In this document: positions 1,259 to 30,495 of the stretch, piece by piece | Numbering within the stretch: the stretch's first letter is position 1 | Layout: every line of letters begins with the position of its first letter | Source of the DNA: Callorhinchus milii | Lineage: Eukaryota | Direction: 5' to 3' | DNA: 64,000 nucleotides | Assembly (NCBI RefSeq): GCF_018977255.1 | Contig: NW_024704743.1 | Span: 3,474,001-3,538,000, forward strand | Notes under the pieces: generated by a model | Database searches by the model: none | What the model was told of the DNA's origin: nothing | The model's input: the letters and a program-made list of their open reading frames with translations, nothing else | Position numbers and translations under genes: made by a program

Positions 1259-4200
1259 GACCTCCTTACGAAGGTGCAGCGTTCTTTCCCACTGATTTTG
1301 TGGCGCCCACAGATTTGGAACCACCTCCAATTGGTAAGTGCTGCGGTGGGAACCTGGCGCTCAGCGACATTCCAGCCTTTGGGAACAGACACTGCTGAGA
1401 GCGGCCAGCCAGCCTGCCTCATTACACAACCTGAGGAGCAGACGAGGCTGGGATTTTTCTCACTTGGCTCCTGTTATCTGTGCAAGCCAAGGCCCTAATG
1501 GTAGTGCTCGCTGAACAAACAGCAGACAGAGTCCCAATGTTGGGATTGGGGAGCTGGTTGTGCTGCAGCAGCAATACACTGTGGCCCTGTATGGGGGAGA
1601 GCCGAGAAGAAAGAGGGGAGGTAACTGTAGTTGCGATCAAAGAGACTGGTCTTCAAGCATGATCTGAAGATGGGCAAGGAGCAGGTAAGACGCAGGAATT
1701 GAGGGGCATAGTGGCTGAAAGCATGGCCGCTGATGGTGGAGTGGAGGGCTCGAGGGACGTGCAGGAGGAAAGAGCCATAGAGAATGGAGTGGGTAGAGGT
1801 GTGGGAATGAAAAGGTTGGAGAGGTAGGGAGGTTCCAGTGCACAAAATGATTTTCAGGAGCCATTGTCTTGTGTGATGGCCACTGGTGTGTAGGTGCTGT
1901 AACTCTGGGATTCCTCTGTAGTCAGATGGTATCTTGTGTGTGTGTACAGTGTGCCCGATGCCTGAGTTCAGGAAGCCATCGCCACTTCCAGTCCAAACCG
2001 AGCCACAACCATACATCGAGCGTCGCATAGGTAAGTGCTGCCATTGGTATCAGGGACCTGGGCCACTCAGCACTGTGCAGCCTCCACTGGAGAGTGTATG
2101 TGTGTGTGGTGATGGGGGGGTGGGGTTGGGTGGAGTGGAGAGGGATGTGGTGTAGTTGTAGGGGTTGGGGGGTGGGGAGGTGCGGGCAAGTAGTGTGGGG
2201 TGGGGATGGTGATGAGGAGGCCCAGAGCTCATTATTTCCTCTCTGTGGCCAGGATACAGAACGTGCACTATGCGGCCAGAGGACCTTATCCTACCCAGTA
2301 CGTTTGCGCTTGCTCCACCACCGAAAGGAAAGAGAAAAGACAGGCGTAAGTTCAACTAGAAATGTGTTGCATGACATAATATCTGGGCTCTTTGTCTGTC
2401 TCTGGGGCCACAGGCTGAGAACTACCTTCCAACCACACAGAGACACAGCGAGTATTGTAATGGTGAGTGTGGAATAGACAAAGTAGACAAGGAAAGGATT
2501 TTATGTTGTGGTGGCTGAAGGATCGAAGTGGAGACGAGAATACATGAGCTGCAGAGTTTTGGATGATCACAGTAATGTTCATCTATGGACTTACCTAGAT
2601 TCCTGCGAATGTTGGGGGGCATGGGGGTTCCTTTTGAGAACCATCACAGGTCACTTCCGGCCACAGGCCACAGATTGGCCACCACTTGGTACAGATTGAA
2701 GATAAGGGTGTGTACGTCAACGACAGACAGTATTCAATACTGAAAAATGAGAAGTGTTCAATTTTGTTCATTTGAAAAAATCTCAATTTACGATATTGTT
2801 CAATTCTGTCCTGACCGTGTGGCTGAGATTTACTGACTGTGATTTTTCTCAGTGGTTCTCTTTTCTCAACAGTACATCAGCAGCAGGCATGTCAGGCCAA
2901 AGGCCAAGGTCTGAGTGAACATCTGTTCCTTCCACATCCAGCGGCAATAGCGAGCCCAATGCAACCTAGAGCAAGTCCCCAACTTGGTGAGACCTGAAGT
3001 CGCTTCAGAGAAGCTTTTGCCCAGCATTGATATTGAATACTGAGAAATAGAGACATCCAGGGTCAGTGGCCAGCACTGATATTCTGTGATAAATGAGCAG
3101 GGCGGGCAGCTCAGTGGCAGATGCAGTTTAATAATGTAAAATATTACATTTTAGAGTTCAGAATACGGAAAGTAAATCCATCATAAATGATAAGCGGAGC
3201 AGAGGGACATTGGTGTGCAGATACACAGCAACAACAACAAAATTAAATGTATAGAGCGCCTATCACGTCGGGAGGACGTCCCAACGCGCTGAACAGTCAG
3301 ATGTCGGGGCCCGAGTAGGGATGGTGCAGGGGTGAGGGAAGGCAGAGAGGTGGGAGGGAGACTAAAGGCATAGTCGAAGAGAAGGAGATGGAGTTCCAGA
3401 TTGTGGAGGCAGAGAGGCTGAAAGCCCGGCCAACGATGGAAGGGTGGGTCGGGCAGGAGACATGGAGCAGGCCGGAACCTGATGAACAGAGGGAGCGGGC
3501 AGATTGGTAGGGAGTCAGCAGGTCAGAGAGGTAGGAGGGGGCAAGGCCATGGATGGCCTTAAAGATGAGGACGAGGATCTTGAACTCGATCCTCTGGGTG
3601 ATGGGGAGCCAATGGAGTCGGGCGAGGGTGGGAGTGATGGGGTCACGGAGCCTGGTGTGTGAGAGTACACGAGCTGCAGAGTTTGGATGTTCTGCAGCTT
3701 GTGAAGGGAAGAGTTGGTAAGGCCGATGAGGAAGGAGTTCCCGTAATCAAGCTTTGAGGTGATGAATGCATGAGTGGGGGTTTTGGCAGCCTGAGGGGTG
3801 AGGCAGGGGCGAAGTCTGGCAATGTTACGGAGGTGGTGGGAGGCGGTGCTGGTCATGGCGTGGATGTGGGGGAGAAAGGACAGTTCAGGGTCAATCAAGA
3901 CACCCAGGTTTCTAACTGACTTAGTGAGGTCACTGAAGGCAGTCAATGATTATCTCCTTAACTCTTCATACCAGGAAAAGCAGTCCCCAATATTGTGCCA
4001 TTCTGCTGTGATAGTAGCTCTCAGCCTGACATGTCCAGGTTTTGTCGTCACTGTTTCTGTTCTCTTGCAGAATTTCAACAGGAGGCACCTGAGGAGGAAG
4101 ATGAGTGTCCTTGTTTAGCAAGTCCAATGGCAGCATCAAGCCCAGTGCAGCCAGTCTCACAGTACGGTGAGTCCTGGAGTATGGGCCCAGAGAGGCCTCT

Positions 4201-7200
4201 GTGAGTCCATTCTTCTCCTGGCTTAACAGTCAGGGGCTGATGGGCAAAGTGTGGGGAGACTTTGAAATGGCGAGGAAAAAGGCATTGTGAGGGCCAGTGA
4301 CACTGATATTCAGTACTGAGGGACAGTGACACCCGGGGTCAGTGCCCAGCACTGATATTCTGTTTCATTACAGATTGGACAAAATTGACATACGCTACAG
4401 CTCCTCAGGCCCCAGGCACAGGGTCCTTTGAAGATGAAGAAATATTGGGAGGAGGTCCTGAATGTGGTGAGTGAGCTTCCCCTCATTTTCCACCTGAGCC
4501 TCTGCCCGGGGCCAGTGTGTGGGGTGGTGGGCAAGGAGGGGGCGAGGGCGGAGCGACAGTTTGGCATTGTGATTAGCTCAGGTTTAGAGGACCTGCTAAT
4601 GGGAGGGTAATTGGAGGTATGTGAAGGGTTGGGTGTGGTGGGAGGGTTGGGTGTGTTGGGTTAGGTGTTGAGCATTGTTGACTGTGTTGGGAAGGTTAGG
4701 GGTTAAGTGGGTTGAGGATGGTTCATTGGCTCCCCATCCCTCAGAGAATCGAGTACAAAACTCTTGTTCTCACCTTCAAAGCCCTCTACTCTCTTGCATC
4801 ACCTACCTCTCTAACCTCCTAATTGCCTGTCTGCTGGCTCAGCTCGGCAGGCACTGGCCTGCTTCAGGTCCCCCGTACTTCCTGCCCTACCCCTACCATT
4901 GGCAGTTGGGCATTCAGCATTTCTGCCCCCATTCTCTGGCACTCTATCCCCCAATCCCTCCGCCTCACCCTCTCTCTTGCCTCCTTAAAGTCCCGTCTAA
5001 AGAGCTTTTTCTTCGACCGTACTTTCGGCCAGTTACCCACCTACACCGCCCCCTGCCATCCACCTCTCCTGTCTGACTTCAAGTCCAAGTTCAGGTCCAA
5101 AAATCCCTGGCTGCCTAGCAACCTGGGATGTCTTTCCCAGTAATTTGTTGTTGTTAGGGGTTAGGTGTGTGCTGGGAGGGTTAAGGGTTAGGTGTCAAAC
5201 ACCAAAATATTCAGGTTCTCTGTTTCCAGGTTTATCCAGGATGGATATAGACGAACTGTCTCCATCAGTTCCACTGCCCTTAAGAAGAAGAATGCCTGTA
5301 CCTGGTAATAGCTGCCCTTCGCGATGAGGAAAGGCCTGCCCATTACACACACTCATTCCCATTACACACGCACACTCCCATTACTCACTCTAACTGTTGT
5401 TACACAAACTCACTCCTGTTACACACACTCAATCCCATTACTCACTCATCCTATTACACAAACTCACTCCTGTTACACACACTCACTCCCATTACTCACT
5501 CATCCTATTACACAAACTCACTCCTGTTACACACACTCACTCCCATTATTCACTCGCTCCCGTTACACACACTCACGCCCCGTTACAAACACTCACGCCC
5601 CGTTACAAACACTCACGCCCTGTTACACACGCTAAGTGCCTAGCACTGATATAACAGAATGGTGGAAGAGGCTTGAGGGGCTGAATGGGCTCCCATTCCT
5701 TTGCTGCTGTTGTGTTTTTAATAGCAGACCTGGTAAGCTACCAACACTCGGCCAGCGGACATTCAGGAAGCAGCTACTTTACAGACTCCTTAGAAGAGCC
5801 ACAAAGAAGGCCAGGAGGAGCGTGTGGTGAGTGAGCTTCTCATTATTCTCCATGTGTCACTGTGTCCTGGGGCCAGAGTTTGGGGCCGATTAGGATGGGG
5901 TTGATTAGGGCTCAAGAAGGAAAGCTTCTTGTTGGGGCAGAGGTCATGGCTGAGGAACTGAATGAGTACTCTGCATCTGTCCTCACAAAGAAGAGCATGC
6001 TGCCAAGGTCACGGTAAAGAAGGACGAGTAGAGAGATTGGATAAGATAAAAATAGATAGAGAGGAGGTACTTAACAGGATCACAGCGCTCAAAGTAGAAA
6101 TGTCACCTGGGATGCATCCTAGATTGATGAGCAAAGTAAGGATGGAAATAGCGGAGGCTCTGGCCACAATCTTTCAATCTTCCTTAGATATAGGAGTAGT
6201 GCCTGAGGACTGGATGGTTATAATAATAATCCTTGCATTTGATACAGCGCTTTTCACGTCGGGTGGACGTCCCAAAGCGCTTCACTGTAAAGTGAATTGA
6301 CTGTATATTTGTGGGCGAACGCGGCAGCCAATTGCGCACAACAATGTCGCACAAACAGTCGTAGATTGAAAATGACCAATTTATTATTGTTTTTGTTTTG
6401 GAGGGATTATTATTAGGCTCTGTGTGGAGTAAGGAAACTTGCCCAAGGTTTCGCCCTCTGCCTGGAATTGAACTCAGGTCTCTCACTTGCAAAGCGAGTG
6501 CTCTAACCACTGAGCTACAGAACTCCACAGTTGGAGTGGTTGTAAATGTTATACCCCTGTTCAAAGCAGAGGAGAGGAATAAATCTGGTAACGACAGACC
6601 AGTGAGCTTAATAGTCAGGCCCTGTCATTGTCAAGCACTCTGAGATGCTACAAACTTCTAGAGATCATAATCCGGGACAAAATTAAATTTTATTTGGATA
6701 AACATGGATTAATAAAAGACAGCCAACACGGATTTGTTAAAGGCAAATCGTGTCTCACTAACTTGATTGAGTTCTTCGTTGAATTACCGGAGAAGGTTGA
6801 TGAAGGTGGTGCAGTTGATGTTGTGTACATGAAGTTATGTGCACTCACACCTGTTACACACGCTCAGTGCCTTGCATTGATAGAATAGAATGGTGGAAGA
6901 GGCTTGAGGGGCTGAATGGGCTCCCATTCCTTTGCTGCTATTGTGTTTTTAATGGCAGACCTGGTAAGCTACCAACACCCGGCCAGCGGACATTCAGGAA
7001 GCAGCTACTTTACAGACTCCTTAGAAGAGCCACAAAGAAGGCCAGGAGGAGCGTGTGGTGAGTGAGCTTCTCATTATTCTCCATGTGTCACTGTGTCCTG
7101 TGGCCAGAGTTTGGGGCTGATTAGGATGGGGTTGATTAGGGCTCAAGAAGGAAAGCTTCTTGTTGGGGCAGAGGTCATGGCTGAGGAACTGAATGAGTAC

Positions 7201-10200
7201 TCTGCATCTGTCCTCACAAAGAAGAGCATGCTGCCAAGGTCACGGTAAAGAAGGACGAGTAGAGAGATTGGATAAGATTAAAAATAGATAGAGAGGAGTT
7301 ACTTAACAGGATCACAGCGATCAAAGTAGAAAAGTCACCTGGGATGCATCCTAGATTGATGAGCAAAGTAAGGGTGGAAATAACGGAGGCTCTGGCCACA
7401 ATCTTTCAATCCTCCTTGGATATAGGAGTAGTGCCTGAGGACTGGATGGTTGCAAATGTTACACCCCTGTTCAAAACAGAGGAGAGGAATAAATCTGGTA
7501 ACGACAGACCAGTGAGCCGAATAGTCAGGCCCTACCATTGTCAAGCGCTCTGAGACCCTAGAATCTTCTAGAGACAATAATCTCAGAAAAAATTTAATTT
7601 TATTTGGAAAAACATGGATTAATAAAGGACAGCCAACACGGATTTGTTAAAGGCAAATTGTGTCTATATCAGGGTCTTCGAGAGGGTGCAGGAAAGATTT
7701 ACAAGTATATACCAGTGATGAGGGACTTTAGTTATGGGGAGAAATTTAGAGAGGCTGGATTACTCTCCCTGGAGCAGAGAAGGTTGAGGGGAGATTTAAT
7801 AGAAGCTTTCCAAATTATGAGGGTGTTTCGAAAGAGTAGGTATGGAAAAACTGTTTCCTCTGGCGGATAGATCAGTAACCAGAGGATACAGATTTAAGAT
7901 AATTGGCAAAAGAACCGCAGCGGAGACGAGGAGAATTTATTTTATCCAGAGAATTGTTACAGTCTGGAATGCACTGCCTGAAAGGGTGTTGGAAGCAGAT
8001 TTGATAATAGCTTTCAAAAGGGAATCAGTTAGGCACTGAAAAGGAAGCAAGAGAGTGGGACTACTTGGTACCTCTTTCAAAGAGCTGGGGATGGCTGTGG
8101 ACAGAGGGTGGGTAGCCAAGGGTGGGTGGCAGAGGGTGGGGGGAAAAGGTTGGGGGCCCAGCATGCAGGGTCCACCTGGTAAGAGCCACCTTGATATTCC
8201 CATTGCCTTCGTCAATGGTCTCCTCAATACGAATGAGTGGGTGGGGGAGGGGTGTGTGTGTGGGGGCAGAGGGTGAGTGGCAGAGGTGGGGGAGCAGAGG
8301 GTGGGGGCTCAGCATGTAGGGTGGGGGATGTGGACATTAATCTGAATATTCCTGTTCTCTGTTCCCAGGGTTTCCCCAGGGGGCTCTGGTCCAACAACGT
8401 TCAGCAGCTCAGTCGCCCCCAAGAAGGCGAATGGCTGCACCTGGTAAGAGCTGCCTCAATGTTTCCATCGCCTTCCTCGCCGGTCTCCCCAGCTCAACCA
8501 CTGACCAAATCCAATTCATTCAAAACTCTGTCACCCACATCCTAACCGGTCCTAAACTCTGCACCCCCATTGCTTCAGTCCTTGCAAGGCTCCAGGTCTA
8601 TGGGATTGTTGCTGAGAGGATTATTGTGTTTGCTCGCAGGGCCTCCGTACGAAGGTGCAGCGTTCTTCCCCTCTGATTTTGTGGCGCCCACAGATCTGGA
8701 ACCACCTCCAATTGGTAAGTGCTGCGGTGGGAATCTGGCGCTCAGTGACGTTCCAACGTTTGGGAAGCAGACATTGCTGAGAGGGTCCAGCCAGCCTGCC
8801 TCGTCACAGGACCTGAGCAGCAGATGGGGCTGGGATTCTTCCCACTTGGTTCCTGTTAATCCTGCAAGCCACAGTCCTAATAGTAGTCCAAGCTAATCAA
8901 TCATTGGAGGCTCGTGGCTTGATCAGGGCGCAGCACTCTGGCTTCCGTATTCATGATGAATGTCTGGGACAGATTGTGGCTCTGTATGAAATCACAGAAT
9001 GCCGTAAAGCTAAGGGTAAACCTACTTACTTTGCGTTCATCGCAACGTAAGTGGGTTCACGTTGCGATGAACGTAAACCCTTTTATAAAGGTTTTCGACC
9101 TAGTGCCTCCTGAGGCCCTCAGGAGGAAACTGGAGCACATTGGATTACATGGCTGAATCCTGGATTTTATCTGGAATGTGTATTCCAGCTCCAAGCTCCG
9201 TGTAATGGTCGACAGTGGACTTGCTTAGCATATCCCTCTGGAAAGAGGGGTAAGGCAAGGCTATCGATTGTCACCCACCCTATTCGAGGTGTTCACCGTC
9301 AAAGACATGTTGGATAATCGAGAAGGATGGGGTATCTGCTCCAGGCCTCTCTGACAGGATTGCGGCACTTCTGTTTACGGATGATATTGTGCTGCTGGCA
9401 GACTCACCGTCTGAAACAGCAGGGAATTGCTAGTACCTACCATCCAGGTAGTGAGGGCTCAAACCAGAGCTTGTCGGATATCAAATGACCAACTGGTGAC
9501 TATCCTCCTAGGGTGTGGAGATAAGCAGGATCTCCTTGGAGCTCAACTGGTTCCAGATAAATGTATGGCAGGAAAATATCTGAATCGAGCCAACCCTCTG
9601 TGGTGGTCTCTAGTCCAGTTCCTAAGCCAGGCGGGTCTGCAGTACTCCAGTGCACAGCCAGTGTGGTTCATCAGCAGGACCTGGAATGACAGACTTGTCA
9701 CTATGGCAGGGAATCATCCCACTCAGTTCCTGTTAACTTTGCAAGCCAAAGCCCTAATACGTAGTCCTCGTTGGACAAGCAGTGGGAAAGCTTGCCGGGC
9801 AGTGCTCTCAATGGCATGCTGTATAGTCTTAGTTGGTTAAATTCCATCAGTTACTACAACACATACTCTGGGGTCCCCAAGCATTGGCTCTTGCCAATCT
9901 GCGCCTAATACTTTCCAGAATTAGGTAAGCATCCGTCCAGGAAAAGAGTTACATTCCATTCCAACAGTCTATCGCTGGGATTTCCATGTGAAGGTGGGAT
10001 GCATGGAATTCTCAGTTTGGTTTGGATACTGTTAAGCATGGCGATGGGTCATGTGGTATGTGTCAGACATCCGGCTGATCCACAAGAAAGAGATTGTTCA
10101 CACTGTAGAATCCCCAAGCTTGGCTCTTGCCAACGTGTGGCTAAATTTTCCGGGCTGGGGTGAGGAGAAGGCATTTCTCTTTCCGTCTTCATTGCCAACC

Positions 10201-13200: not shown

Positions 13201-16200
13201 CACACACATACAGACTCACACACAGATAGAGAGAGTGAGACACACACACACACACACACAGAAAGAGGTACACACACAGATAGAGAGAGATACACACACA
13301 CATACAGAGCGAGACAGAGAGAGAGACACACACTCACAAACAGGCAATCTCAGCAACGGTGCAGCGTTCAGTTCTGGTTTCGGTGATGGGTTGGGATCTG
13401 GGCTAATTACTGAATGTATTTCTTCTCAGATGGAGCGGGGGCGAATGCAGCGGCAATGATCAGTCCACGACTGTCACCACACAAAGTGGCACCATCACCA
13501 GCTCCACCTGTCAAAAGGCGCTGCGACCCTTATCCCACAGTTACACCGGGTGAGCCATCCCTCTCCACACAGCAACTGTAACTGAGATATTTGCCATGAG
13601 AAGGGGCTGTATTAAAAGCAAGCTCCTTCTTTGGATCCCGATTTTAGTCATAAACGAGCAGGGTGGGCAGTTCAGTGGCAGTTGCAATTCAATGATGTAA
13701 ATGTGAAGGGTTACGTTTTGGTATTAAGAATAAGGAAAGGAAATCCACTTTAAATTATCAGTTTTTAACATGGAGCAGAGCGACCTGGTGCAGTTAAACA
13801 GGTCACTAAAGGTGACCACACAGGGAAACAATGACTCTTAATTCTTCATACCAGTAAATATCAGCTTCCAATATAATAATAATCCTCGCATTTGATATAA
13901 CGCCTTATCACGTCTTCGAAACATCTCAAAGCGCTTCGCAGAATATACTGTAAAGTGAATTGACAGTTTTTGTGACAGCCAATTGCGCACAGCACAGCAG
14001 TGACCCATAAACAATCGTGAATTGAGTGACCAATTTTGTGGTCAAATAATTTATTTTGACTTATTACCCCGGGAAAAACGATCAGCCAATCGACTAACAA
14101 CCGGGTTCCTACTTACTGCTAGGTAAGCAGAGGCACGTGGAGTAAGGAAACTTGCCCAACGTTTTGCCTTGCCCGGGAATCAAACCCAGCCCCTCTCGTT
14201 TGCGAGTACCAGGTCTTTTCATATACCACACCCAGTGCCAACAAGGAACATGACTTATGGAACAAGTCCCCAATTTGGTGAGAATCATGCCTTGCTCCCT
14301 CCCTTGCCTCCTTCAAGGCATGATTAAGACCCACCTCTTCGACCGTGCCTTCGACCACACTCCAACCCCTACCTTCCCTGCCCTCCACCCTTCCTGATCC
14401 CAACCCCAGCTCAGGTCCAACTCACTGACTGTCCAATGCCTTGGGATGTCCTCCCGACAAGAAAGGCACTATACAAATGTTGTTGTTATTGACCATACAG
14501 TCAATGATGATCCCCTTAACTCTTTATACCAGTAAATATCAATTCCCAATAATGTGCCGTTCTGCTCTGATAGTAACTCGTTGTCAGTGTTTCTGTTCTC
14601 TTCTCTCAACAGTACGTCAGCAGCAGGCATGTCAGGCCAAAGGCCAAGGTCTGAGCGAACATCTGTTCCTTCCACATCCAGCGGCAATAGCGAGCCCAAT
14701 GCAACATGGATCAAGTCCCCAACATGGTGAGACCTGAAGTGGCTACAGAGAAGCTTCTGCCCAGCATTCATAGTGAATACTGAGAAATAGAGACATCCAG
14801 GGTCAGTGGCCAGCACTGATATTCTGTGCTGAGGAACAGTGATAAATGAACAGGGCGGGCAGCTCAGTGGCAGATGAGTTTAATAATGTAAAATGTTACA
14901 TTTTAGTGTTCAGAATACAGAAAGTAAACCCATCATAAATGATAAGCGGAGCAGAGAGACATTGGTGTGCAGACACATAGGTCACTGAAGGCCACATGGT
15001 CAATGATGATCCCCTTAACTCTTCATACCAGGAAAAGCAGTCCCCAGTATTGTGCCATTCTGCTGTGATAGTAGCTCCCAGCCTCACATCTCCAGGTTTT
15101 GTCATCACTGTTTCTGTTCTCTTACAGGATTCCAACAGGAGGCACCTGAGGAGGAAGATGAGTGTCCTTATTTAGCAAGTCCAATGGCAGCATCAAGCCC
15201 AGTGCACCCAGTCTCACAGTACGGTGAGTCCTGGAGTATGGGCCCAGTGAGGCTCAACTTAATAGTCAGGGGCTGATGGGCAAGGTGTGGGGAGACTTGG
15301 AAATGGTGAGGAAAATGGCACTGGAGGGGACAATGACACTGATATTCTGTTCGAAGGACAGTGACACCCGGGGTCAGTGCCCAGCACTGATATTCTGTTT
15401 CATTACAGACTGGACAAAATTGACATATGCTACAGCTCCTCAGTCCCCAGGCATAGGGTCCTATGAAGATGAAGAAATATTGGGAGGAGGTCCTGAATAT
15501 GGTGAGTGAGTTTCCCCTCATTTTTCACCTGAGCCTCTACTCAGGACCAGTGTATTGGGCGGTGGGCACAGGGTGGGGATGGGGGGGGGGGGTTGGTGTG
15601 CATGGGGTGGGCTGAGAGAACAGTGCGGCACTGTGATTGGCTCACAGTGTGGTGCTAATGATGGGGTGAGAGAAGGGGCTAATGGGAGGGTGATTGGAAG
15701 TGTTAAGGTGTGTTGGGTGGGTTAGGGACAAAGACTTGAATATTCAGGTTCTCTGTTTGCAGGTTTTCCGAACATGGATGTGGACGAACTGCCCTTAAGA
15801 AGAAGAATGGCTGTAACTGGTAAGAGCTGTCCTTTGCAATGAGGAGAGCATACTCACTCCCACAAACACGCAAGCTCCTGTTACACACACTCACCACCGT
15901 TACACACACTCACGCCCCGTTACACACACTCACGCCCCGTTACACACACTCACGCCCCGTTACACACGCCCACGCCCCGTTACACACGCTCACGCCCCGT
16001 TACACACTCTCACGCCCCGTTACACACACTCACGCCCCGTTACAAACACTCACGCCCCGTTACACACACTCACGCCCCGTTACAAACACTCAGTGCCTTG
16101 CACTGATAGAATAGAATGGTGGAAGAGGCATGAGGGGCTGAATGGGCTCCCATTCCTTTGCTGCTGTTGTGTTTTTAATAGCAGACCTGGTAAGCTACCA

Positions 16201-19200: not shown

Positions 19201-22200
19201 GAACTACCTTCCAACCACACATAGAGACACAGTGAGTATTGTAATGGTGTAATAGACAGTGAGTATTGTAATGGTGTAATAGACAGTGAGTGCAGTAATT
19301 GTGAATGGTGTTATGGTGAGTACAGTGATGGTGAGTGGTGTAATGGACACATTAATGGTGAGTAAAGTAATGCAGTGCAAGCGTAGACAATGAGTTCCGA
19401 GTCCTGATATGGGGATTGAACCCATAACCTTCTGACTGGGAGGTCAGAGTGCTCCCCACTGAGAGAGGCTGACCCCCGCTCATTGAGTCATTGACACACA
19501 GTCCAGTGAAGGTGGCTGTGCAAGGAAACTTCAACTTCATACCAATTCTGCTCAGATGGTCGAGCTGAGCCACACAGTGAGATGGTTTGATGACTCTAGT
19601 TTCCTTCTGTTTTCAGCAGTACATCAGCAGCAGGCGTGTGAGGCCAAAGGCCAAGGTCTGAGCCAACATCTGTTCCTACCAAATACAACAGCAACAACGA
19701 GCCCAATGCAACTTGGATCAAGTTCCCAACATGGTGAGACTTGAAGTAGCTGTGTAAGGGTCGCTCTTGTTTACTACACATGTCAATCATCTGGGTTCAG
19801 GAATTGAGAGAATAATAATGAATTTTACTGAGATCTTAAATTGGAGGCAAATTGTAACAAAGATCATGAACAATTACATGAAAAACAGATAGACGAGCTG
19901 GGTGGGCAGCTCAATGGCAAGCTATGTGGTTTTAGCTGGTTAGACTCCAGGTGTCCCCAAGCCTTGGCTTTTGCCAACCTGCGCCCAATACTCTCCAGAA
20001 TCAGGTAAGCAGGATGCATCCCTCCAGGGAGAAAATGCGTATTCCATTCCAATAAATATCTCGGAAATTTCCGAGCATAGGTAGGATGCATAGAATTCTG
20101 TTTGGTTTGGATACTCAGGCATAGGTGATGGGTTTCTGCCTGTGTCAGACACCCGGCTGACCAAAAACACTATTTGGTGGGAGGGTTAGAAGTGGTGAGG
20201 AACATTGCGCACCGACTCGGTGTCCTATCAGCACTGATATTCTCTTGTTAATTACAGGCATGTCGAAATACACATTCCCTTCAAGCTTTCACTCACCAGG
20301 CGGAATGTCCTTTCAAAATAAATCGGTAGGATCACCCAAATGTGGTGAGTGAGTTTCCCTCTGTCGGGAGGTGGGGGGTGTGGAAGTGGGGGGGAAGGAG
20401 GTATGGAGCGGATCATTGGGGGAGAGGATCATTGGGGGAGAGGATTATTGGGCAGGGATTATTGGGCAGGGATTATTGGGAGCTTTATCCTCTGTTATGT
20501 TCTCTTACAGGAATTCAGCAACCACTGGGGGCACATTTGTTTCTACCCACAACAAGGGAAGCATGGAGCCCAGATTTCTCAGGAGCAGGACCGCAGCATG
20601 GTGAGTTGTAGAGAAGCAGGAGTGGCAGGGTCTGTACCCCAGAGAAACCTTTAGCCATTTCCATCATTTACATTAAGGCAAATATTTGTAGGAGTAATAC
20701 TGTCCTTTCCGCTCTGCGAGCCTATGGCCCACATCCTCCCCCGGCTCCACTGGTTCCCCATTTTCGAGGGGATCCGGGTTTGATTCCCGGACAGAGCAAA
20801 ACCTTTGGCAAGTTTCCTTACTCCACACGCCTCTGTTTACCTAGCAGTAAGTAGGAACCCAGTTGTTAGTCGATTGGCGCATTGCTTTCCAAGAGTAATA
20901 ATCCCTCAAAAAAAAATGTGGTTAATAATTTTTTAAAAAATTGGTCACTCAATCTATGAATGTTTGCCCAATTGGCTGCCGCATTTCGTCCACAAAATAT
21001 ACAGTCATTCCACTTTATAGTGTATCATGAGAAGCGCTTTGAGACGTCTCAACAACGTGATAAGGTGCTATATCAAAGGCAAAGATTATTATAATAATTG
21101 AAGCCTGGCTTTGATTGTCTTAGTTGAGGTGACTGTTTCTGGGTCTGTAGCAACAGGGTTGTCGATGAGCAGGTCTGCAGAGTTTGAGGAGTTTATGGTT
21201 GAAGATTTGAAAGCTCCATCCCAATGCTGTGAGTATCTGAATAACCAAAGTATCTCTGCTAAAAACATTACTCCTTTTTTACCCCAAAGTATTTTGCCAA
21301 ATGTCAGCCTGACTCAAGCTGCTTGAAGATTTGTCTGGGCCGGAAGGGCTCAAGCCCCCATGTCAGGATCTTTCAGCTCACAGTCCAGGCTGACACTCGA
21401 ATCAAGCACTGGGCAAACCCTGCATTGTTGGAGGCACTACATTGTCCTGCCAATGGGATGTGAAACCGAGGCCCCATCTGTGCCTGTTCAGGTGGACATT
21501 AAAGATCCTGCCTCACTTTTGAAACAGAGAATCAAAGGAATCTTACAGCACAGAAAGGAGGGCATTTGGCCCATCGTGCTTGTGCCAGCTCTTTGAAAGA
21601 GCTACTACCAACAACAACAACTTGCACTTTATAGCGCTCTCCATGCAGGGTGACGTCTCAAAGCGCTTAACAGTGGCTGAGCCTGACTCTGAGCCGGTGG
21701 GGGGGGAGGTAGCCATAAGCATGGTCGAAGAGGAAGGTTTACAGGCAGGATTTGAAAGAGGGGAGAGGGGGGGCAAGGTGGAGGGATTGAGGGAGTGTTC
21801 TAGAGTTTTGGGGCTTAGTGGCTGAAAGCACGATCTCCGATGGTGGGGTGCAGGGCACGAGGGTCGAGCTGAGGCACCAGGTGGTGGATTGGGGAGTGAG
21901 GAGGTCGGAGAGGTAGGGAGGTGCCAGAGAGTGAAAGTATTTGAATACGAGTGTGAGGTTCTTGAAGTCGATCCGTTCGGTGATGGGGAGCCAGTGGAGC
22001 CTGGGCCAGAACTGGTGAGATATGGGTACGCAGTTTGGTCTGGGTAAGTATGCTGGTGGCAGATTTCTAAATGAGCTGGATCTTTTGAAAGTGGAGCTGG
22101 GGAGACCGGCGAGGAGTGTATTTGAGTAATCTAGACGGGAGGTGACAAACACATGCACGAGGGTTTCGGTTGCATTTGGGGTAAGGTATGGTCAGAGGCG

Positions 22201-25200
22201 GGCAATGTGGCGGAGGTAGAAGAAGGCGGTCCTGGTCAGGGACCGGAGGAGGGGGAGGAAGGACAGCTGGGGGTTGAACCAGACGCCTAGATTGCGCATC
22301 GGTTCGGTGAGTGTGAGGGAGAATCTGGGGAGGTTGAGGAGTTCAGATCTGCAGGAGTAAAGACATTGACGGGAGCCAAGGAGTCTTGACCACATTCAGT
22401 TCCACCAACTAGTCCCACTCCCCGCTCTTAACCCATAGCCCTGCAATTTTTCCCTTTTCCAAGTACCTATCTTTCGAAAGCTACTATCGATTATTATTGA
22501 TTAGGCCTCCTGTTTTCCCTCGTCCCTCTGCTCCACCATCAGTGGCCACGCATTCAGCCACTATGCCCCTGGAACTCTGGACCTCTCTCCCTCAATCCCT
22601 CCACCTTGTCCCCTCCCTGCCCACCTTCAAATCCCATCTAAAGATCTTTTCTGATCATGCTTACGGTCAGCTCCCCCCTCTCCCTGGCTCGGGTTCAGAC
22701 TCCACCACTGTCAAGCACTCCGGGACACTACCCCACATAAAGGGCGCTATATAAATGCAAGTTGCTGTTGAATCTGCTTCCATGACCCTTTCAGGAAGTG
22801 CATCCAGACCATAACAACTTTCTGGGTAAGAAATAAATCGCTCACTGACCTGATGGCTGTGTGCAGGACCTTGCCATACGCAAATTGGCATTTGTCTATG
22901 ATTGATACAGTCAACAATAACTTGGATCGATCTAGCGCTGTTCGCCTAGGCTAAAGTTTCGCAGTGCCTTGCCACAATGCTCTGTGGAAGCTGTGTGAGA
23001 GGTTTCGATGGTAAAGGTGCTGGATCAGATGGGAGGCTTATACCTGATTGTGTGTTTAACCAGTATTCTCATCATTCCTGCACCTGGTGACTGAGGATAC
23101 CCTGGCGGACGAAAGTGCCAGGGCTCTCCATGACATGAATCCTGAAATGCTGAGGTCACCCTCACGCTCAGTGTACTGTAAGTACCAGAGAGACAGCAAG
23201 GCTTGTGGTAAGCCAGGCCACAGGGTGCTAACCCGCTCACAGGTACCCTGACAGGGAGGGGAGGGAAGGTTCCTTTGCCTGAATTGTGTAGGCGTTGAGG
23301 GGGTTTATACTGATAATAATACTTTCATGTTACTGCCTTTCATGTTAGTAGGACGTCTCAACTTTGTGTGTGATTAAAGGTTATAGAATCATAGAATATT
23401 ACAGCAGAGAAGAAGGCCATTTGGCCCATTGACCCTGTGTAGCTCTTTGGAAATGCTACCCAATGAGTCCCACTTCCCTGCTCTTTCCCCATAACCTTAT
23501 AAGTTTTTTCTTTTCAAGTATCTATCCAATTTCCATTTGAAAGTTGTTATTGAATCTGTTTCCACCAGCCTTTCAGGCAGTGCATTCTAGACCATAACAA
23601 CTCTCTATGTAAAAAAAAATACTCATCTCTCATATAGTTCTCTTGCTAATTATCGTAAATCTGTTTCCCCTGGTTACCAACCCACCTACCAGTGGAAACT
23701 ATTTCTCCCTATCTACTCTGTCAAAACCCCTCATAATTTTGAACACCTCTATTAAATCCTCCTGAACCTTCTCTGCTCTAAGGAGAATAATCCCAGCTTC
23801 TCTAGTCTCTCCATGTAACTGAAGCCCTACCCCTGCACCCTCTCCAAGGCCGAGACATCCTTCCTAAATCTCTATAAAATCTTGACATTGTTATTGCAGT
23901 ACTATGTACCGTTCTGGATGCCATATTACAGGAAGTGTATTGGAGCAGTATTATAGCTTGCTCTCCCTCTCTTCTCTCCAGGGTGGGGGTTGGTGTGGAG
24001 TATAAACACCTGCACAGACAGTTGAGCCAAGTGGCCGGTTTCCGTGCTGTAATGTTGCATGTATGAAAGTACGTCCATTTGATCTCATATTTCCAGAACA
24101 CCTGCCTGACCCACTTCCCATTATAGCATCAAGCTGTTCCGTAAATGAATTCCAGATGGCCTCAGTCATCATCCTGGTGACCCTGATCCCCTCCCTCTCT
24201 GGTGTCTGTCCTAACAGGGAGTGTGAAGGGCAGTTATAGGCTTGGTATATTGGAAAGTATTGTTCTGTATTTACTTTCTCAATCTCATTCAGCATGTGTA
24301 TCATATAATATAGTACTGTGCATATAACTGTTTCCCAGAGCTTATTCCTTCAACTCTGGGGATCATCCTTAGTGTTCTGCTCTGTCCTGCCTCGAGGGCA
24401 CCCCTTAAATCATGCAACAACACCATTTATGTAGCACCCCTCACCCGGGATAGCGTCCCAGAGCGCTTGAAAATGGTGGAGCACGACATCGAGCCGGGGG
24501 AGGTGACCGTAGGCAGGATTGAAGAGGAAAGTCTTCAGGTGCGACTTGAAGGTGGGGAAGGAAGGGGCAAGGTGAACGGGTAGAGGAATAGTGTTCCATA
24601 ATTTTGAGGCATAGTGGTTGAAAGCATGGTGACTGATGGTTGATTGGAGAGCACAAGGGAACGAGCAGGGGGCCGGAGCCAGTCGAGCGGAGGCAGTGGG
24701 TAGCGGGTTGGGGAGTAAACCCATCGTACATGTGCCGGCTTGTTGGAAGAGCTACCCATCAGTCCCATCATTCCCACGAGCATTCCTCATATCCTTGAAA
24801 ATGTTTCCTTTTCAAGTACCTATCCAATTCGCTTTTGAAAGTTGTTTTTGAATCTGCTTCCACGAACCTTTTAGTTAGACTAAGCTCCTGTTCTGTGTGT
24901 TTAAGGCTTAGACTGATCTCCTATTCTGTGTGTTTGAGGGTTAGACTGAGCTCCTGTTCTCTGCTTATTGACAGCGCCGTCTTCAGTGGTGAATTCCGAA
25001 TATCTGGAAAATGAGAATTTGTTCCATCCCCAAGGTAAGCCATCCCCAAGGGAATGATGAGTGAGTGAGTGAGTGAGTGAGTGAGCAAGTGCGGTGATCC
25101 GACAAGCAGAAGAGGAAGGCAAAGGGAAGCAGTGTTATCTGTCCTCTAATATCCTGGAGTGTAAGTGTTCAGCGCTGGGTTCCTCTTGGGCCGAGTCTAG

Positions 25201-28200
25201 ACTGACACTGCACACAATGCTGGGCAGCATTGTATGGTTGGAGGCATCATTCAGATGAGATGTTAAATCACCTGAATATTCACAATCCTGTGCAGTTCTA
25301 TACAATTTACATCTATACAGTGCCTTTCATGTCAGGATGACAACCAGAACATGGGAACTGGGGGAGGCCATTCAGCCCATGAAGCCTCTTCTGTCTGTTC
25401 AGTAGATCATGGCACTTTGAACTCACAGTCTAAACTGAGATGCCATTGCAGTGCTGGGGTAGGGTTGTATTACCAGAGGTGCCGTCCTTCGGATGAGACT
25501 TTAACTGAGTTGCTGTCTGCCTATTTAGGTCATTGTTAAAGATTCCGTGGCACTGTTTGGAAAGAGAAGGAAGTTTCTATCTCGGTGTTCTGGCCAACAA
25601 TCCCCCAAATAGGAATGGTTATTTACTTCACGGCTGTTTGCAGGACATTGCTGCGTGCAAATTTCCTGCTGTTTTCACACATAAAATATACAGTCACTGC
25701 ACTTTACAGTAAATCCTGTGAAGCACCTTGAGACTTCTCGATGATGTGATAAGGCGCAGTGTCAAATATAAGGTTTATTGTTATTATCTTTAATAGTTAT
25801 TATTATTTAATAATAGTAATAAATAATAATAACCTTGCATTTGAAATAGCACCTCATCGAGATGTATTAAAGTGCTTCACGGACTCTGCTGTAAAGTGAA
25901 TTGACTGTATATTTTGTGGGCGAACCACGGCAGCCAATTACGCACAGCAATTAATTCCTATTTCCTGTTTTCCGCCTTTATTCCACACGTCTCCATTTGC
26001 CAGGTCTCTATCCATCTCCCTTTTTAAACATCCCAGTCTACAACCTTCTGAGGTCATGCGTCCTCGCACTCTCTGCATGCCGACATGACATGTTCCCTGA
26101 TCCCACCTCTTAACCGTCCTGGCTTTGATGTTAAGATCACAACCCCTTATTTTGGAAGGAAATGTTGTCCACCTCCCAGCTTGTCAATTCTCTTCATTAT
26201 TTTACACACCTCCATCCAATCAAGCCCATAACGTCAGCATGCTCCAGCCTGGGCACTGTGTCTCCTCTCCAATACAGTCTCCTCTCCAATACAGGCTACA
26301 GGGGCAGCTCACCGTCAGTCCGTGAAAAATCGCAGGATCATACTCCCCGCCACTCGTCCGTCTGCAGTAAATGTGGTGAGTATCCCCATCCCAGAGCTCC
26401 GCCACTGTCATGCGCTCCAGGAAGCTACCCTGCGTAAGGGGCGCTATGTAATTGCAAGTTGTGGGAGTTGTCATTGTTGAGTTCTGGGGGCTGAGCACGG
26501 ACTGAGCCAACGTTGTTTGGGCTCTCAGTAGGATAAGATGTTGGAGTGGTTTCCAATGACAAGTTAGGGAGAAGGAAGAGAGGAGGGAGAAGGGGAGGTG
26601 ACCCCAGGTGCTGTCGATGTAGGTTTTTAGGTGGGATTTAAAGACATGTAGTGGGGTGGGGGTGGCAACGGGGACAACTATAACTACAACAAATTGCATT
26701 TACACAACGTCTTTCACGTCGGGAGGACATCCTGATTTGCTGGAAAGATGGAGGAGTAGAGGGAGTTCGAGAATGGGGGTCAATCCGTCGTTGAAAAATT
26801 CCCCAAGCTTGTTAGTTTGCTTTTGTTGGTAATTTCACCTCTAGTTCCTGACTCTCTGGCACCCCCCTCTCTGCCCCGTGCTCCCCCCTCTGCCCCGCGC
26901 TTCCCCCCTCTACCTGCGCTTCCCCCCTCTGCCCCGCTCTGTGTTATGTGACTGTGTTGCTGTGGCACTAATCCCTGTTCTCTCCTCAGTGATGAGGAAT
27001 GAATCCCTGAACAGGTCTAGGAGGCAACACCACCAGAGTGGTAAGTGGGGGCAGGAAGGGCAGCCTGGGGTGTGGTGACAGGTGGTGAGGGTGGCACTGA
27101 TTTATTGATGGAGGGGGGAGAGGGAGGGGTGCCTGTCTGACAGCTCAGTGACCCTGGCCAAGCACCTCTCCTCTTACCACAGGAACAGGCCTCAAGCCAT
27201 CCTGGCTGCTTTTCTAAACAGCCTTGGTCGGTCAATCATTCCATTTCCCTTCGCTTTCTCCCTTAATGGTTTTGCTGTTCACATTCTTAACCAGTTGCCT
27301 GTTGACCAACTCTGTCCTTCGGATGAGACGATAAACTGAGGTCCAGTCTGTGCCTATTCAGATGGATGTGAAAGATCTTGCGACGCTATTGGAAAAGAGA
27401 AGGGCGTTTCTCTTTCTCTCTCCCGGTGTCCTGGCTGATAATCCCCTAGGTATTGGTCATTCACCTCACAGCTGCTTGTGGGACATTGCTATGTGCAAAT
27501 TAGCTTCTGCCATTGTCTGCACAGTTGTCTCCATCCTGTGAACCTCCCACCAAGCCACCTCCCCCTTTATTCCAATCTTTTCAAATGGGTGTTTGATCTC
27601 AGCTTTCCTCCTCCCCCCATCCTAACCCAACTTGGATGTCCGGTTAGCCTTGTGAAGCACTTTGAGGCATTCTCCTGATGAGATAGTCGCTGTATAAATG
27701 TAAACCCACCTCCTAACTAGCCTTTGAGAGAAGAAATTGTAAGCTCTCCTCATGACCTATGCCTCTCGTTGCCAATCTTGGAGGCCAAGGACAACCCCAG
27801 GTTCCTTTTCATCACCACCAACCGACTACTCCATTCACCGCTCGCACCTCGCCTAACCTCTCCTCCAACGCCAACTGTGCAGAGATGCTGGACTTCCTCG
27901 AGACCAAAATCGAGGGGATCTGCTCAACGGCCTCTTCCCTTCCAACTACTATCCTCTCCCCATCTCCCCCTCACACTCCGGCTCCTGCCCATCCCTCCCT
28001 CTAGACCTTCGACCTTGTCTCCCTCTCCTCTCTCACCACCATTTTGACCCATATGAAACCCAACTCCTCCTCCCTCGACCCCAACCCGATCCCAGGCAGT
28101 GGAACTTGGAGGTAAGGAGAAGGGTAAGGATGGGGTCGGGGTAGAGAGTGGACAGTCTGACATTGCCTGAACTTTGGCCTGCAGGTCAGCAGCAAGTGTA

Positions 28201-30495
28201 CGAGATGCCCAGGAAGCAAAACCTACACTCGTCATTCTCCAGGCCAGCGAAGTACAGAAATGTCAATACGTCTCTGCCGCGTAAGTTTGCACTGGAGTGG
28301 CTCCAACTCGTGTAAATGATAATTGCGACCATTAACACACTGGAAACAATAACAAAAACTTGCATTTATTGTGCCCTTCATGAGGGTTAGTGTCCCAGAG
28401 TGCTTGACAGTGGTGGAGTCTGACCCTGAGCCAGGGGGGAGGGAGGAGGTGACCATAAGAACAATCCAAAAAGAAGGTCTTTAGGCGGTATTTGAAATTG
28501 GGGAGGGAGGGGGCGAGGCAGAGGGATTCATGGAGAGAGGTCGAGAGTTTCGGGGTGCAGTGGCTGAAGGCACGGCCACCGATGGTGGAGCGGAGGAGAT
28601 GAGGGACAAACAGGAGGATGGAGCCAGCCGAGTGGAGGCAGCAGGTGGTGGAGTAGGGGATAAGCAACTCAGAGAGGTAGGGAGGTGCCAGGGCTTGCAG
28701 GAATTTGAACGAGTGAGAGGATCTTGAAATCGATCCATCACCCTGTCAATGGCCTTGGGTAAACTCAACATAACAAGCAATCCAGCCAATATTCCCATAT
28801 TTTCCCAACCTCCCTCCCAAGTCAATATCCCCGCCACCGACCATTCCCTCCTGACTATCTCCCCCCACTCGACCAACACCCACCCCCGCACCCTCCACCC
28901 CCGACCGTCCCTCCCCCGAAGTGTTCATGTACACTCAGCTCAGCGTGCTGCCCTTTCACTGTTTCAGTAACAGCCAGAACGGCCTGGCCTGGGCCAGTCA
29001 TGAGAGGTCAAACTCCAAGGTGGACACCAATTCACACCGCCGCCTGCCGAGCTGCTGCTGTCAACCGGACGAGATAAACCATCAACCCGTAAGTGGCAGA
29101 ATGGAAAGTCGTTGAATTCAAACGCAATGGGTCCTGTTTACACAAGAGGAGCTCAGCAACACATAGGACCCACTATTCAGGCCTGCACTCCCTCTGGTTG
29201 GGCTCAGAGGTACCCCCATCCCCACACCACTCTCCCCTCACCACAAACTCTGCTTGTCATTGCTGACACACATTAGCCTCCCTGCCTCGTCCACTCCACA
29301 CACTACCCCCACCCACCCCGCCAGCTCTGGCTAAGCCCCGCTGGTCCACTCAACGCTTCCCCCCTACCTCTTCTCTCCCTCCAGCTCCGGTCCGGGTAAG
29401 CCCTGACTCATACCTCCCACGCACTCTCCTCCCTGCTCTTGAGTAAAGGCGCTCAGTATTCCCCTTCCCTTTCTGGAGTTTGTTTATGTGCCTTTGGAGG
29501 GAGAAGAAGGGGCAATGCCTGATTGTAGAGGGTATAGTGTTTTGTGTGAGGCGTTAAACAGAGGGCCTGATTTTTTTGTACCTTTTGGGTGGATGTTAAA
29601 GACCCTGTGCTGACTGGGGAAGGGGTTTCCTGGCCGTTTGTCCTGTTTTCCTGGCCAACAATCCCTGATAGCCCTCGGTCCTCAATCTTTCCTGAGGTGT
29701 CGGCCGCATTCCGATTGACCCTTGAACATGGGCTATGGGATGTGTGCAGTGTAATGCTGAGTATCCACACACGCCTGACTGTCCACTTATCCACAAAGGT
29801 ATCAGTCTAGCTCAGTTGGCAGCAATCTTGCCTACGATTGTGGGTTCAAGCTCCACATCGGGCTTTTCAGTTCACAGTCTGTCTGGGCTGGCGATGCGGG
29901 TGTCAGGGGTGGGGGGGACGGGATGTGCTGATTGTGGGGTATAATTGTGCCAGGTTTCTGCCCAGTCCTTCATTGTCTCAATAACAGGATCAGCAGTTTG
30001 CAGAAGATCCACAGCCAGTGCCATTTCTGCCACTTACACACACACACCATCCCAGGTAGGTCTGCCCTAGCACCCTCTCTCTCCCCATTCCCCTCTCCCT
30101 CTCCTTCCCTCCCCGGCCGGGTCCCTCTCTCTGGCCCCCACTCTTCTCCCCACCCCCTTGTAGCACCATCTCCTCACCCGCCCTCTCCCCCCTCTCCCCG
30201 GCTCCCCTCTCTCTGGGCTCTGGCCAGGTCTACCCACGCACGCTGTTTCTGATGATTATGATGATTGTGTAATGGGAATATTGATGTCTGTCCAGCTTTA
30301 CACCTGAAACTCACTACATCTGGAAAACACGATGCCTGCGGGAGAGGGGAGGTGAGCCCTAGCCAGAGCTCAGTGTCAGCCCGGGGAGAGGGGAGCGGGG
30401 AGTGGAGGGAGCCACACGGAAGCCAAAGCAGCTGCGGAGAAGGAATTGTGAACCCTCACTCCCTCGGTATTTCGTTTGGGGTAGAAAGTGATTAG
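1259..30495 (+). CDS. Unidentified multi-exon gene (5'-truncated) encoding a Pro/Ser/Gln-rich repetitive protein; about 33 exons
   Basis: AG/GT-bounded, stop-free, phase 1-1 exons with lengths divisible by 3: 1259-1333, 1950-2030, 2253-2345, 2873-2986, 4071-4166, 4374-4466, 5230-5304, 5728-5826, 6959-7057, 8369-8443, 8640-8714, 10295-10375, 10895-10987, 13430-13549, 14613-14726, 15128-15223, 15409-15501, 15763-15819, 16185-16283, 17104-17172, 17643-17717, 18720-18800, 19035-19127, 19620-19733, 20258-20344, 20511-20600, 23064-23177, 24975-25034, 26295-26375, 26990-27040, 28185-28280. These are followed by an anomalous exon ending at 29088 and a terminal exon 30296-30495. Confidence 0.8.
3235..3920 (-). 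mobile_element. L2 LINE 3' fragment
   Basis: VRNLGVLIDPELSF..HLRNIARLRPCL..HAFITSKLDYGNS peptide and (TTG)n tail. Confidence 0.9.
5880..8060 (+). mobile_element. Degenerate CR1 ORF2 fragments (duplicated with the host exon)
   Basis: SPGMHPRLM..EIAEALATIFQSSLDIGVVPEDW, DSQHGFVKGKSCLTNLIEFF and LEQRRLRGDLIE. The same fragment occurs at 16340-16970. Confidence 0.85.
6219..6528 (-). mobile_element. Full-length tRNA-derived SINE with L2-like 3' tail
   Basis: Head has A box TAGCTCAGTGG and B box GAGTTCAATTCC. Tail AAGCGCTTTGGGACGTCC..CGTGAAAAGCGCT..ATCAAATGCAAGG(ATT)n. Interrupts a CR1 fragment. Confidence 0.9.
9075..9420 (+). mobile_element. Degenerate non-LTR reverse transcriptase fragment distinct from the local CR1/L2 copies
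   Basis: KVFDLVPPEALRRKL..G..ERGVRQGYRLSPTLF..LFTDDIVLLADS with in-frame stops. Confidence 0.75.
10503..10860 (+). mobile_element. tRNA-derived SINE, related subfamily
   Basis: GAGTCCTGTAGCTTAGTGGTTAGAGC head, GGCAAGTTTCCTTACTCCAC body and L2-like tail. Similar copies at 20770-21095, 42740-43110 (minus) and 55150-55600. Confidence 0.8.
11520..12660 (-). mobile_element. L2 3' fragment with a nested CR1 3' end (about 12030-12420)
   Basis: L2 peptides ([39 protein letters not shown]) are split by the CR1 peptide ETYKILKGLDRVD..TRGRSLRI..FFTQRVMNL. Confidence 0.85.
13136..13338. repeat. Compound (CA)n/(GA)n microsatellite
   Basis: Direct observation. Confidence 0.9.
15880..16092. repeat. 20-bp minisatellite (TACACACACTCACGCCCCGT)n; related array at 5340-5632
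   Basis: About 10 direct tandem copies visible. Confidence 0.92.
16340..16970 (+). mobile_element. CR1 ORF2 fragment (paralog of the 5880-7660 copies)
   Basis: VVLEDWMVANVTPLFK and KDSQHGFVKGK peptides. Confidence 0.85.
21605..22345 (-). mobile_element. L2 LINE 3' fragment
   Basis: [33 protein letters not shown]. Confidence 0.88.
23385..23870 (-). mobile_element. CR1 3' end
   Basis: Reverse complement of the CR1 3'UTR seen at 1-585; ATAGAATCATAGAAT tail. Confidence 0.8.
25420..25790 (+). mobile_element. Deu-domain-like SINE
   Basis: GCCGTCCTTCGGATGAGAC..TTAA..GTCTGCC..AGGT..GTTAAAGAT..TGGCACT..GGCCAACAATCCCC core. Recurs at about 21380, 27310, 36780, 37820, 39550, 43800 and 54300. Confidence 0.65.

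Follow-up and report, generated by a model that had tools for sequence, protein, structure and literature searches.

A predicted gene of 44 symmetric phase 1-1 exons in Callorhinchus milii, in which selection holds the reading frame and hardly the amino acids

Runs of symmetric exons that share a single phase are enriched in disordered proteins, and arise by internal duplication (Schad et al. 2013, PMC3632108). In the accessible part of that paper calpastatin is named as built from class 1,1 exons, and titin PPAK and treacle are further examples of such proteins. A predicted gene of this known architectural kind, itself probably undescribed so far, lies in the genome of Callorhinchus milii. 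It occupies the forward strand of a 64,000-nucleotide stretch of contig NW_024704743.1 (positions 3,474,001 to 3,538,000; assembly GCF_018977255.1), here called the window, and starts about 9 kb upstream of it. Together with 120 kb taken upstream and 40 kb downstream, 224 kb were analysed; negative coordinates are counted back from window base 1.

As far as that source describes them, the calpastatin-type genes share with this locus a phase 1-1 run, a disorder-type composition, and growth by internal exon duplication. Such genes have three or more consecutive same-phase symmetric exons; the DNA here has 44, with predicted disorder above 40% and evident exon duplication. The locus differs in showing no sequence match, no detected conserved motif, a ratio of nonsynonymous to synonymous change (dN/dS) near 1, and a candidate signal peptide, and its 44 exons make up nearly the whole protein. 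A calpastatin orthologue was rejected: PF00748, the calpain-inhibitor repeat, is absent from the 12 exon peptides scanned (of about 46 exons).

Two other systems invite comparison. The schistosome micro-exon genes (MEGs), a family of 35 genes with demonstrated alternative splicing, have 10-20 exons per gene, of 3-81 nt and mostly 15, and encode proteins of at most 189 residues (bioRxiv 10.1101/2023.06.21.545858, from the accessible portion of the preprint). Shared features are exons mostly divisible by three that follow a signal peptide (a candidate here), low conservation, and the potential for in-frame skipping. The present exons are 51-120 nt long, 44 of them lie in one single-copy vertebrate gene, and skipping is a possibility read from DNA; membership in the MEGs was rejected because exon size, exon number, and copy number do not fit, though the gene may function in a similar way if its exons prove to be skipped. 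SCPP genes (secretory calcium-binding phosphoproteins), according to the accessible text of PMC9122587, have mostly phase 0 introns, lie beside sparc-L, and encode many SxE sites. The predicted product resembles theirs in looking secreted and unfolded, Pro/Gln-rich and partly acidic, with short duplicated exons. However, all internal introns here are phase 1, and SxE sites occur at chance frequency (10, against 10.2 expected). The position also differs: no SPARC-like exon was noticed in the 224 kb, with no dedicated SPARC search made, and the neighbours are sphingomyelinase-like and interferon-like. An SCPP gene was rejected on intron phase, SxE sites, and locus.

The exon set was rebuilt from splice-site scans of the DNA. 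Within the window it comprises 31 exons between 1259 and 28280, with a summed length of exactly 2,739 nt, as an earlier note on this DNA had claimed. All 31 have AG/GT ends, measure 51-120 nt, are divisible by three, and lack stops in phase 1; the four peptides quoted in that note as examples are encoded on the + strand at 1259, 1950, 2253, and 4071. Its span of 1259 to 30495 stood as to the exons and needed revision at both ends: 13 more such exons precede 1259, and 28968-30495 holds candidate terminal exons, which are asymmetric. The full run is 44 phase 1-1 exons (3,900 nt). Phase 1 is open in 44/44 exons, phase 0 in 11/44, and phase 2 in 18/44; in 22/44, only phase 1 is open. Introns across the gene measure 85-2,463 nt, with no intergenic-looking gap. 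The exons would be spliced into one transcript.

This exon pattern is genuine and far above chance. The test took the best acceptor for each donor, ignoring frame, and used self-made approximate splice matrices drawn from general knowledge. On the + strand of 1001-28500, 29 of 59 candidate segments were divisible by three and open in phase 1 (the counts for phases 0 and 2 were 10 and 14), against 4/23 on the - strand and, in a control stretch (31001-58500), 4/20 (+) and 2/19 (-). Forty dinucleotide shuffles gave 3.0 +/- 1.7 such segments, with a maximum of 10. The scan recovered 24 of the 31 exons exactly. Three of the seven misses had the acceptor shifted 3 nt upstream, at NAGNAG sites (5725, 16182, and 19617); the other four (2253, 10895, 19035, and 23064) fell below the thresholds used.

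When exons were clustered together with their flanks, 35 of the 44 grouped with another at E <= 1e-4. The families are A (13 members, including the Q type and a remnant at 14236), B (10), C (6), and P, V, and R (three each). The features of the predicted gene, with these family letters, are as follows.

-9189 to -9114, +, candidate first exon: ATG to phase-1 GT donor, hydrophobic core
-8891 to -8784, +, B exon, phase 1-1
-7539 to -7450, -7179 to -7090, and -6819 to -6730, +, A exons, phase 1-1, in three 360-nt tandem units
-6214 to -6161, +, exon, phase 1-1
-5427 to -5320, +, A exon, phase 1-1
-4831 to -4739, +, B exon, phase 1-1
-3991 to -3893, +, A exon, phase 1-1
-3198 to -3106, +, B exon, phase 1-1
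-971 to -858, +, A exon, phase 1-1
-646 to -575, +, B exon, phase 1-1
-489 to -415, +, C exon, phase 1-1
-264 to -190, +, C exon, phase 1-1, opening block copy 1
1 to 1258, +, 3' part of a 1,448-nt intron
1259 to 7057, +, window part of block copy 1, which begins at upstream exon -264
1259-1333, 1950-2030, and 2253-2345, +, P, V, and R exons of copy 1
2873-2986, 4071-4166, 4374-4466, and 5230-5304, +, Q (A-type), A, B, and C exons of copy 1
5728-5826, +, L exon (B-type) of copy 1, NAGNAG at 5725
6959-7057, +, second L exon of copy 1, a recent tandem copy (96.7%)
8369 to 16283, +, block copy 2
8369-8443, 8640-8714, 10295-10375, and 10895-10987, +, C, P, V, and R exons of copy 2
13430-13549, +, exon unique to copy 2
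14236 to 14277, +, remnant Q/A-type exon, 3' end and donor kept, outside the 31
14613-14726, 15128-15223, and 15409-15501, +, Q, A, and B exons of copy 2
15763-15819, +, C exon of copy 2, with an 18-nt deletion
16185-16283, +, L exon of copy 2, NAGNAG at 16182
17104 to 19733, +, block copy 3 (partial)
17104-17172, +, C exon of copy 3, with a 6-nt deletion
17643-17717, 18720-18800, and 19035-19127, +, P, V, and R exons of copy 3
19620-19733, +, Q exon of copy 3, NAGNAG at 19617
20258 to 28280, +, single-copy 3' exons, phase 1-1
20258-20344, 20511-20600, 23064-23177, and 24975-25034, +, the first four of these, beginning with a B and an A exon
21124 to 21228, +, possible additional phase 1-1 exon with weakly scoring splice sites, 105 nt long, or 78 nt if it starts at 21151; outside the 31
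26295-26375, 26990-27040, and 28185-28280, +, remaining single-copy 3' exons
28968 to 29088, +, candidate 3' exon: stop at 29075-29077 in phase 1, 11 nt before a GT donor
29988 to 30055, +, candidate 3' exon: 68 nt, strong donor, all three frames open
30296 to 30574, +, candidate last exon, AATAAA at 30569

Besides the stop within 28968-29088, the gene might end by skipping that exon: joining 28185-28280 to 29988-30055 and then to 30296 would place a stop three codons into the last exon. A third arrangement (28968-29088, 29988-30055, and 30296 onward, one open frame of 84 codons) was rejected, as it offers no entry from a phase-1 donor and its second exon does not match the A profile.

Selection maintains the splice sites, the frame, and the freedom from stops; it hardly maintains the amino acids. 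In the introns of 19 exon-bearing self-alignments, 4,538 columns contain 55 indels, of which 45 are not divisible by three. At that rate the 1,849 exon columns would be expected to hold 18.3 frameshifts, and net frameshifts are 0. Exon gaps in these alignments are of 18, of 6, and, in two of them, of 1+1+6 nt, where the single-base gaps cancel; global alignments of exon copies contain gaps of 18 and 6 nt only. These two are the single gaps behind the pairs of 75/57 and 75/69 nt, correctly taken by the earlier note as in-frame indels. The 80 substitutions in nine exon families produced no stops, against 3.2 expected (P 0.03), and so the note's proposal of selection on the reading frame holds on both counts. 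For the residues, pooled dN/dS is 1.04 over 27 pairs; first, second, and third codon positions differ 66, 66, and 50 times. Hand sums by family give about 0.33 for P and about 1.6 for C-type exons, with R almost unchanged; C-type exons show 69 amino-acid changes per 306 sites against 15 silent changes per 108 (six non-independent pairs, no significance test). The earlier suggestion that any exon could be skipped in frame is largely upheld in the 44-exon set: of 946 exon pairs, 935 can be joined stop-free, and the other 11 all start at exon -3198, which ends in T.

The gene grew by repeated tandem duplication. Old A and B exon-plus-intron modules multiplied first (A and B exons alternate in the 5' part) and C later; next, a nine-exon block (C-P-V-R-Q-A-B-C-L) was copied, and about 2.5 copies of it now exist, the third being incomplete; single-exon triplets and doublets followed. 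Aligned pieces of the block copies are 82-97% identical, and repeat insertions in the introns differ between copies. The youngest duplications are the 360-nt exon-plus-intron triplet at -7539 and the doubled L exon. The A, B, and C modules have diverged nearly beyond alignment, yet keep length divisible by three and phase. Because every unit has these two properties, the frame survives any copy or loss; once a phase 1-1 unit is present, only its copies are tolerated, so that duplication alone gives the run, and no splicing programme is needed.

Profiles A1 and A2, run across six frames of the 224 kb, found no additional family members, and in the species' own genome (991 Mb; DNA and exon-peptide queries) nothing outside the locus matched better than E 0.7. 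As far as these searches reach, the gene is thus single-copy. In two DNA-like sequencing runs, single-copy stretches of the region recur with 0-4 differences over each several hundred bases (0-3 for stretches such as 19110-19937 and 20140-20566). This speaks against an artefact of assembly, although no contig spans the blocks. The R exons (2253-2345, 10895-10987, and 19035-19127) differ at 0-1 of 93 nt, with about 20% in the flanks of 10895; such near-identity points to strong selection or gene conversion. A stray 41-nt copy of the R exon acceptor lies at 18265-18305.

Searches for relatives were blank, and so was their positive control. A profile of 11 A-type exons drew 5,939 candidates in the protein search, 0 at E <= 10, and exon 28185-28280 with a few flanking codons drew no candidate; an interferon-like exon from the window, the positive control, found nothing either, and these blanks consequently do not prove the gene an orphan. 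HMMER against 1.84 billion representatives returned nine matches at E <= 0.001, all rejected: eight RCC1-repeat proteins matching through the word SSPV, and an unrelated tandem-repeat protein. The best ESM Atlas scores (0.84, for two exons) lie within the range of shuffled proteins. Since its sequence turnover is fast, the gene is likely lineage-specific. Literature searches outside subscription journals yielded no description of it. Four upstream exons (801 nt) matched 4 of 12 sequencing runs, none recorded as RNA. When two of these four and two of eight further runs guessed to be RNA were mapped on 12001-32000, intronic repeats swamped the result, and among the 15 of more than 7,400 joints inspected none fell at exon ends. 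Neither result bears on expression.

The chain from all exons would have 1,361 residues (150 kDa; pI 5.4), with Pro 13%, Ser 9.5%, Glu 7.9%, Ala 7.8%, Gln 7.2%, and Cys 2.1%. Its first 300 residues are acidic; Pro/Arg-rich and acidic units then alternate. The disorder proposed earlier is supported: 63% of 51-residue windows fall below zero in FoldIndex and 60% of residues are disorder-promoting, with a borderline whole-chain value (0.009). AlphaFold2 found no fold in the A module (predicted template-modelling score 0.13). None of the 12 exon peptides scanned reached the Pfam cut-off, in keeping with the lack of a recognised domain, and the chain contains no membrane helix (best 19-residue hydropathy 1.34).

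What might such a protein be? We tentatively favour a secreted, unfolded glycoprotein, encoded by a single-copy, lineage-specific gene, in which bulk properties outweigh sequence; we put this at about 0.45, slightly below even odds. The gene would have about 46 exons: a first exon, the 44 symmetric ones, and one to three terminal exons, for about 1,360 residues. Exon 1 would supply a signal peptide closed by a phase-1 intron, and the secreted chain would be N-glycosylated and remain unfolded. Scattered cysteines (2.1%) may cross-link it, RR/KR clusters may be cleavage sites, and the product could be a matrix, gel, or coat component in one tissue. Because frame is kept and residues hardly, the properties that count are probably those of bulk, namely length, charge, glycans, and the content of Pro, Ser, Glu, and Gln.

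Four features each point weakly to secretion: the signal-like exon 1, an excess of sequons, the scattered cysteines, and the lack of either a nuclear localization signal (NLS) or a membrane helix. The first depends on the 5' end. The SMPD5-like (sphingomyelinase-like) neighbour has a complete last exon and its own stop at about -10066, only about 1.2 kb before the first phase 1-1 exon. That leaves no room for a folded N-terminal domain ahead of the array, contrary to the earlier note's expectation of one. Immediately ahead of the phase 1-1 run stands a single strong donor, at -9113; the ATG frame that it closes is 25 codons and one base long. The 224 kb contain 400 strong donors, of which 63 have an open phase-1 ATG frame and four of these also an 11-residue hydropathy of at least 2.3; the -9113 donor is one of the four. 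The stretch it closes is the most hydrophobic of the chain (other 19-residue windows, at most 1.23).

Motifs were counted over all exons and then with one copy per recent family, with expectations from shuffles. N-x-S/T sequons involve 9 of 27 Asn, against 3.3-4.1 (p 0.004-0.008), and 8 against 3.1-3.6 without duplicates. Paired basic residues number 29 against 10-13, and 12 against 5.2-7.0 without duplicates. Granin-type prohormone precursors combine a signal peptide, an acidic disordered chain, and paired-basic clusters with few large exons and conserved terminal domains. The predicted product would share the first three traits (its signal peptide being a candidate) and differs in its many small exons and in the lack of a Pfam match in 12 exon peptides. 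Adaptors of the LAT type and receptor tails have a membrane helix and enriched Tyr-based SH2 motifs; a LAT/SLP-76-type adaptor or receptor tail was rejected, as the chain has no membrane helix, no SH2-like exon was noticed, and Tyr motifs are not enriched (YxxPhi 4 against 7.9; YxN 1 against 0.8).

Several points weigh against the secreted glycoprotein. The candidate ATG belongs to an interspersed repeat of the locality. The donor half of the first exon recurs in inverted form (80-88%) 12 kb upstream, where it can be read as a phase 1-1 segment of 99 nt that lacks an ATG; the candidate first exon may consequently be a damaged internal exon or non-coding. Another of the four signal-like matches is an acceptor read-through inside the gene, showing that such stretches can arise by chance, and the n-region of the candidate signal peptide has no basic residue. 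Ser+Thr amount to 14% only, low for a mucin; sequons were among ten motifs in the first round of testing. Exons have diverged (7.6%) almost as much as introns (8.8%), which also suits weak or lapsed function, and the pairs behind dN/dS and the indel count share ancestry and are not independent. Two endings fit the DNA, and the terminal exons are candidates. Finally, [ST]P pairs are in excess (37 against 22-25; without duplicates 25 against 14-15, p ~0.001-0.007), which would suit an intracellular phosphoprotein too. As a separate observation, the inverted copy takes in the donor half plus the intron start (-21574 to -21790, - strand), beyond the SMPD5-like gene, and may mark a local inversion or duplication.

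The [ST]P excess leads to a second explanation, less likely though a serious one: the same gene with the same growth, encoding an intracellular disordered protein like calpastatin, treacle, or the titin PEVK region. Exon 1 would be non-coding, with the start of translation at the earliest in-frame Met of the leading B exon; binding would be tuned by proline-directed kinases and by Arg clusters, perhaps in germ cells. The acidic first 300 residues with the alternating units behind them fit this proposal, as does the exon with the KGKRKDR patch, which differs by 0-1 of 93 nt among three copies and far more in its flanks; CCAAT-like words stand, by eye, just ahead of the first donor. Calpastatin itself is made up of class 1,1 exons, as the accessible part of PMC3632108 has it. 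Yet the CDK regulation that the earlier note proposed is not borne out, as full sites (7 against 2.1) are not enriched once duplicates are removed (3 against 1.2; p ~0.12). Nor are nuclear signals supported, with 0 matches to three monopartite NLS patterns (ELM expressions). Sequons are enriched, and a dN/dS near 1 speaks against conserved binding motifs overall.

The amino acids change at the neutral rate, which would also suit a once-functional gene that recently lost its 5' end, through insertion of a repeat or a local inversion, and has since fallen silent, its frames recording past selection. The repeat-derived ATG of the first exon and the inverted twin of its donor segment (-21574 to -21688) fit such a loss. 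So does the remnant at 14236-14277, an exon already broken by the interspersed repeat it adjoins (13864-14195), where a weak cryptic acceptor would still give a 42-nt in-frame exon. But all 44 exons, young copies of 96-99% identity included, keep AG/GT ends and open frames, and any death of the gene would have to be very recent; we consider it improbable.

A little less probable still is a vertebrate counterpart of the schistosome MEGs, a single secreted, fast-changing protein in which the 44 exons would be cassettes skipped combinatorially. The resulting variety of glycoproteins, or of peptides cleaved from them, would act where host meets microbe or sperm meets egg. Two findings bear on it: the gene adjoins two interferon-like genes, and its C-type exons change more in residues than silently.

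The array might instead not be one stand-alone gene, but an alternative 3' extension of the sphingomyelinase-like gene or two to three short genes, one per block; this is quite improbable. The neighbour does lie on the same strand and has phase-1 donors; its stop precedes the candidate first exon by about 0.9 kb, and no AATAAA/ATTAAA follows that stop until -7951, within the second intron of the array gene. However, its last exon and stop are complete, the blocks have no start or stop exon of their own, and no intron looks intergenic. Chance splice-like words inflated by segmental duplication or assembly error can be dismissed almost entirely: duplicated copies are indeed not independent and no contig spans the whole region, but the frame-blind scan against shuffles largely excludes this, the old, nearly unalignable modules all keep length and phase, and the block copies are 4-18% apart and carry different repeat insertions, with single-copy stretches confirmed in the DNA-like runs.

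The surroundings offer further observations. Upstream, at about -9 to -60 kb, peptide recognition suggests two genes that we take to be SLC52A2-like (-), one FBXL6-like (+), and the SMPD5-like gene (+), the sole upstream neighbour with any Pfam hint (PF03372, weak, E 0.017). A gap of 25 N lies at -15685. Farther upstream, from -119.8 to -90 kb (+), a second tandem array repeats a 48-nt exon, nearly unchanged, at least 22 times at intervals of about 1.3 kb; read in phase 1, the units are Thr/Trp/Lys/Pro-rich. The array ends close to a Cys-rich exon (about -89.3 kb), and its copy at -107473, with a length of 46 nt, would shift the frame. From -73.5 to -70.7 kb (-), two long open frames each encode a Cys-rich stretch, presumably chitin-binding-like, and then Thr-rich mucin repeats.

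Downstream, two tandem, intron-containing type I interferon-like genes lie at 41845 to about 39300 (-) and 52559 to about 51050 (-). The third exon of each matches PF00143 (E 3e-4 and 0.04) without reaching the curated cut-off. The pair does not have the GH/CD79 neighbours that the accessible part of PMC5332411 gives for the classical elephant-shark cluster. A second IFN1 locus, sister to the amniote intronless interferons, is reported in the accessible text of PMC6640115, and the pair may be that locus. Over 409 nt of first exon and 5' flank the two genes share 96.6% identity, and later exons are far more diverged, suggesting gene conversion. A 400-codon open frame at 58447-59649 (-) encodes acidic Thr/Glu/Pro/Ser tandem repeats in units of 24, 30, and 36 nt. 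An exon at about 67550, on the same strand, resembles an NME8/NME9-type NDPK domain.

The architecture of this gene is already known, and as a prediction from DNA its weight is modest. Nonetheless, the locus keeps an unusually clean record of how a long disordered protein was assembled, with old modules, block duplication, and young copies side by side in one gene. Selection visible on frame, not on sequence, makes it a good test case for whether frame-neutral exons are skipped or merely tolerate duplication. If the product is secreted, it would add a candidate for a matrix or coat component to a lineage from which SCPP genes are reportedly absent.

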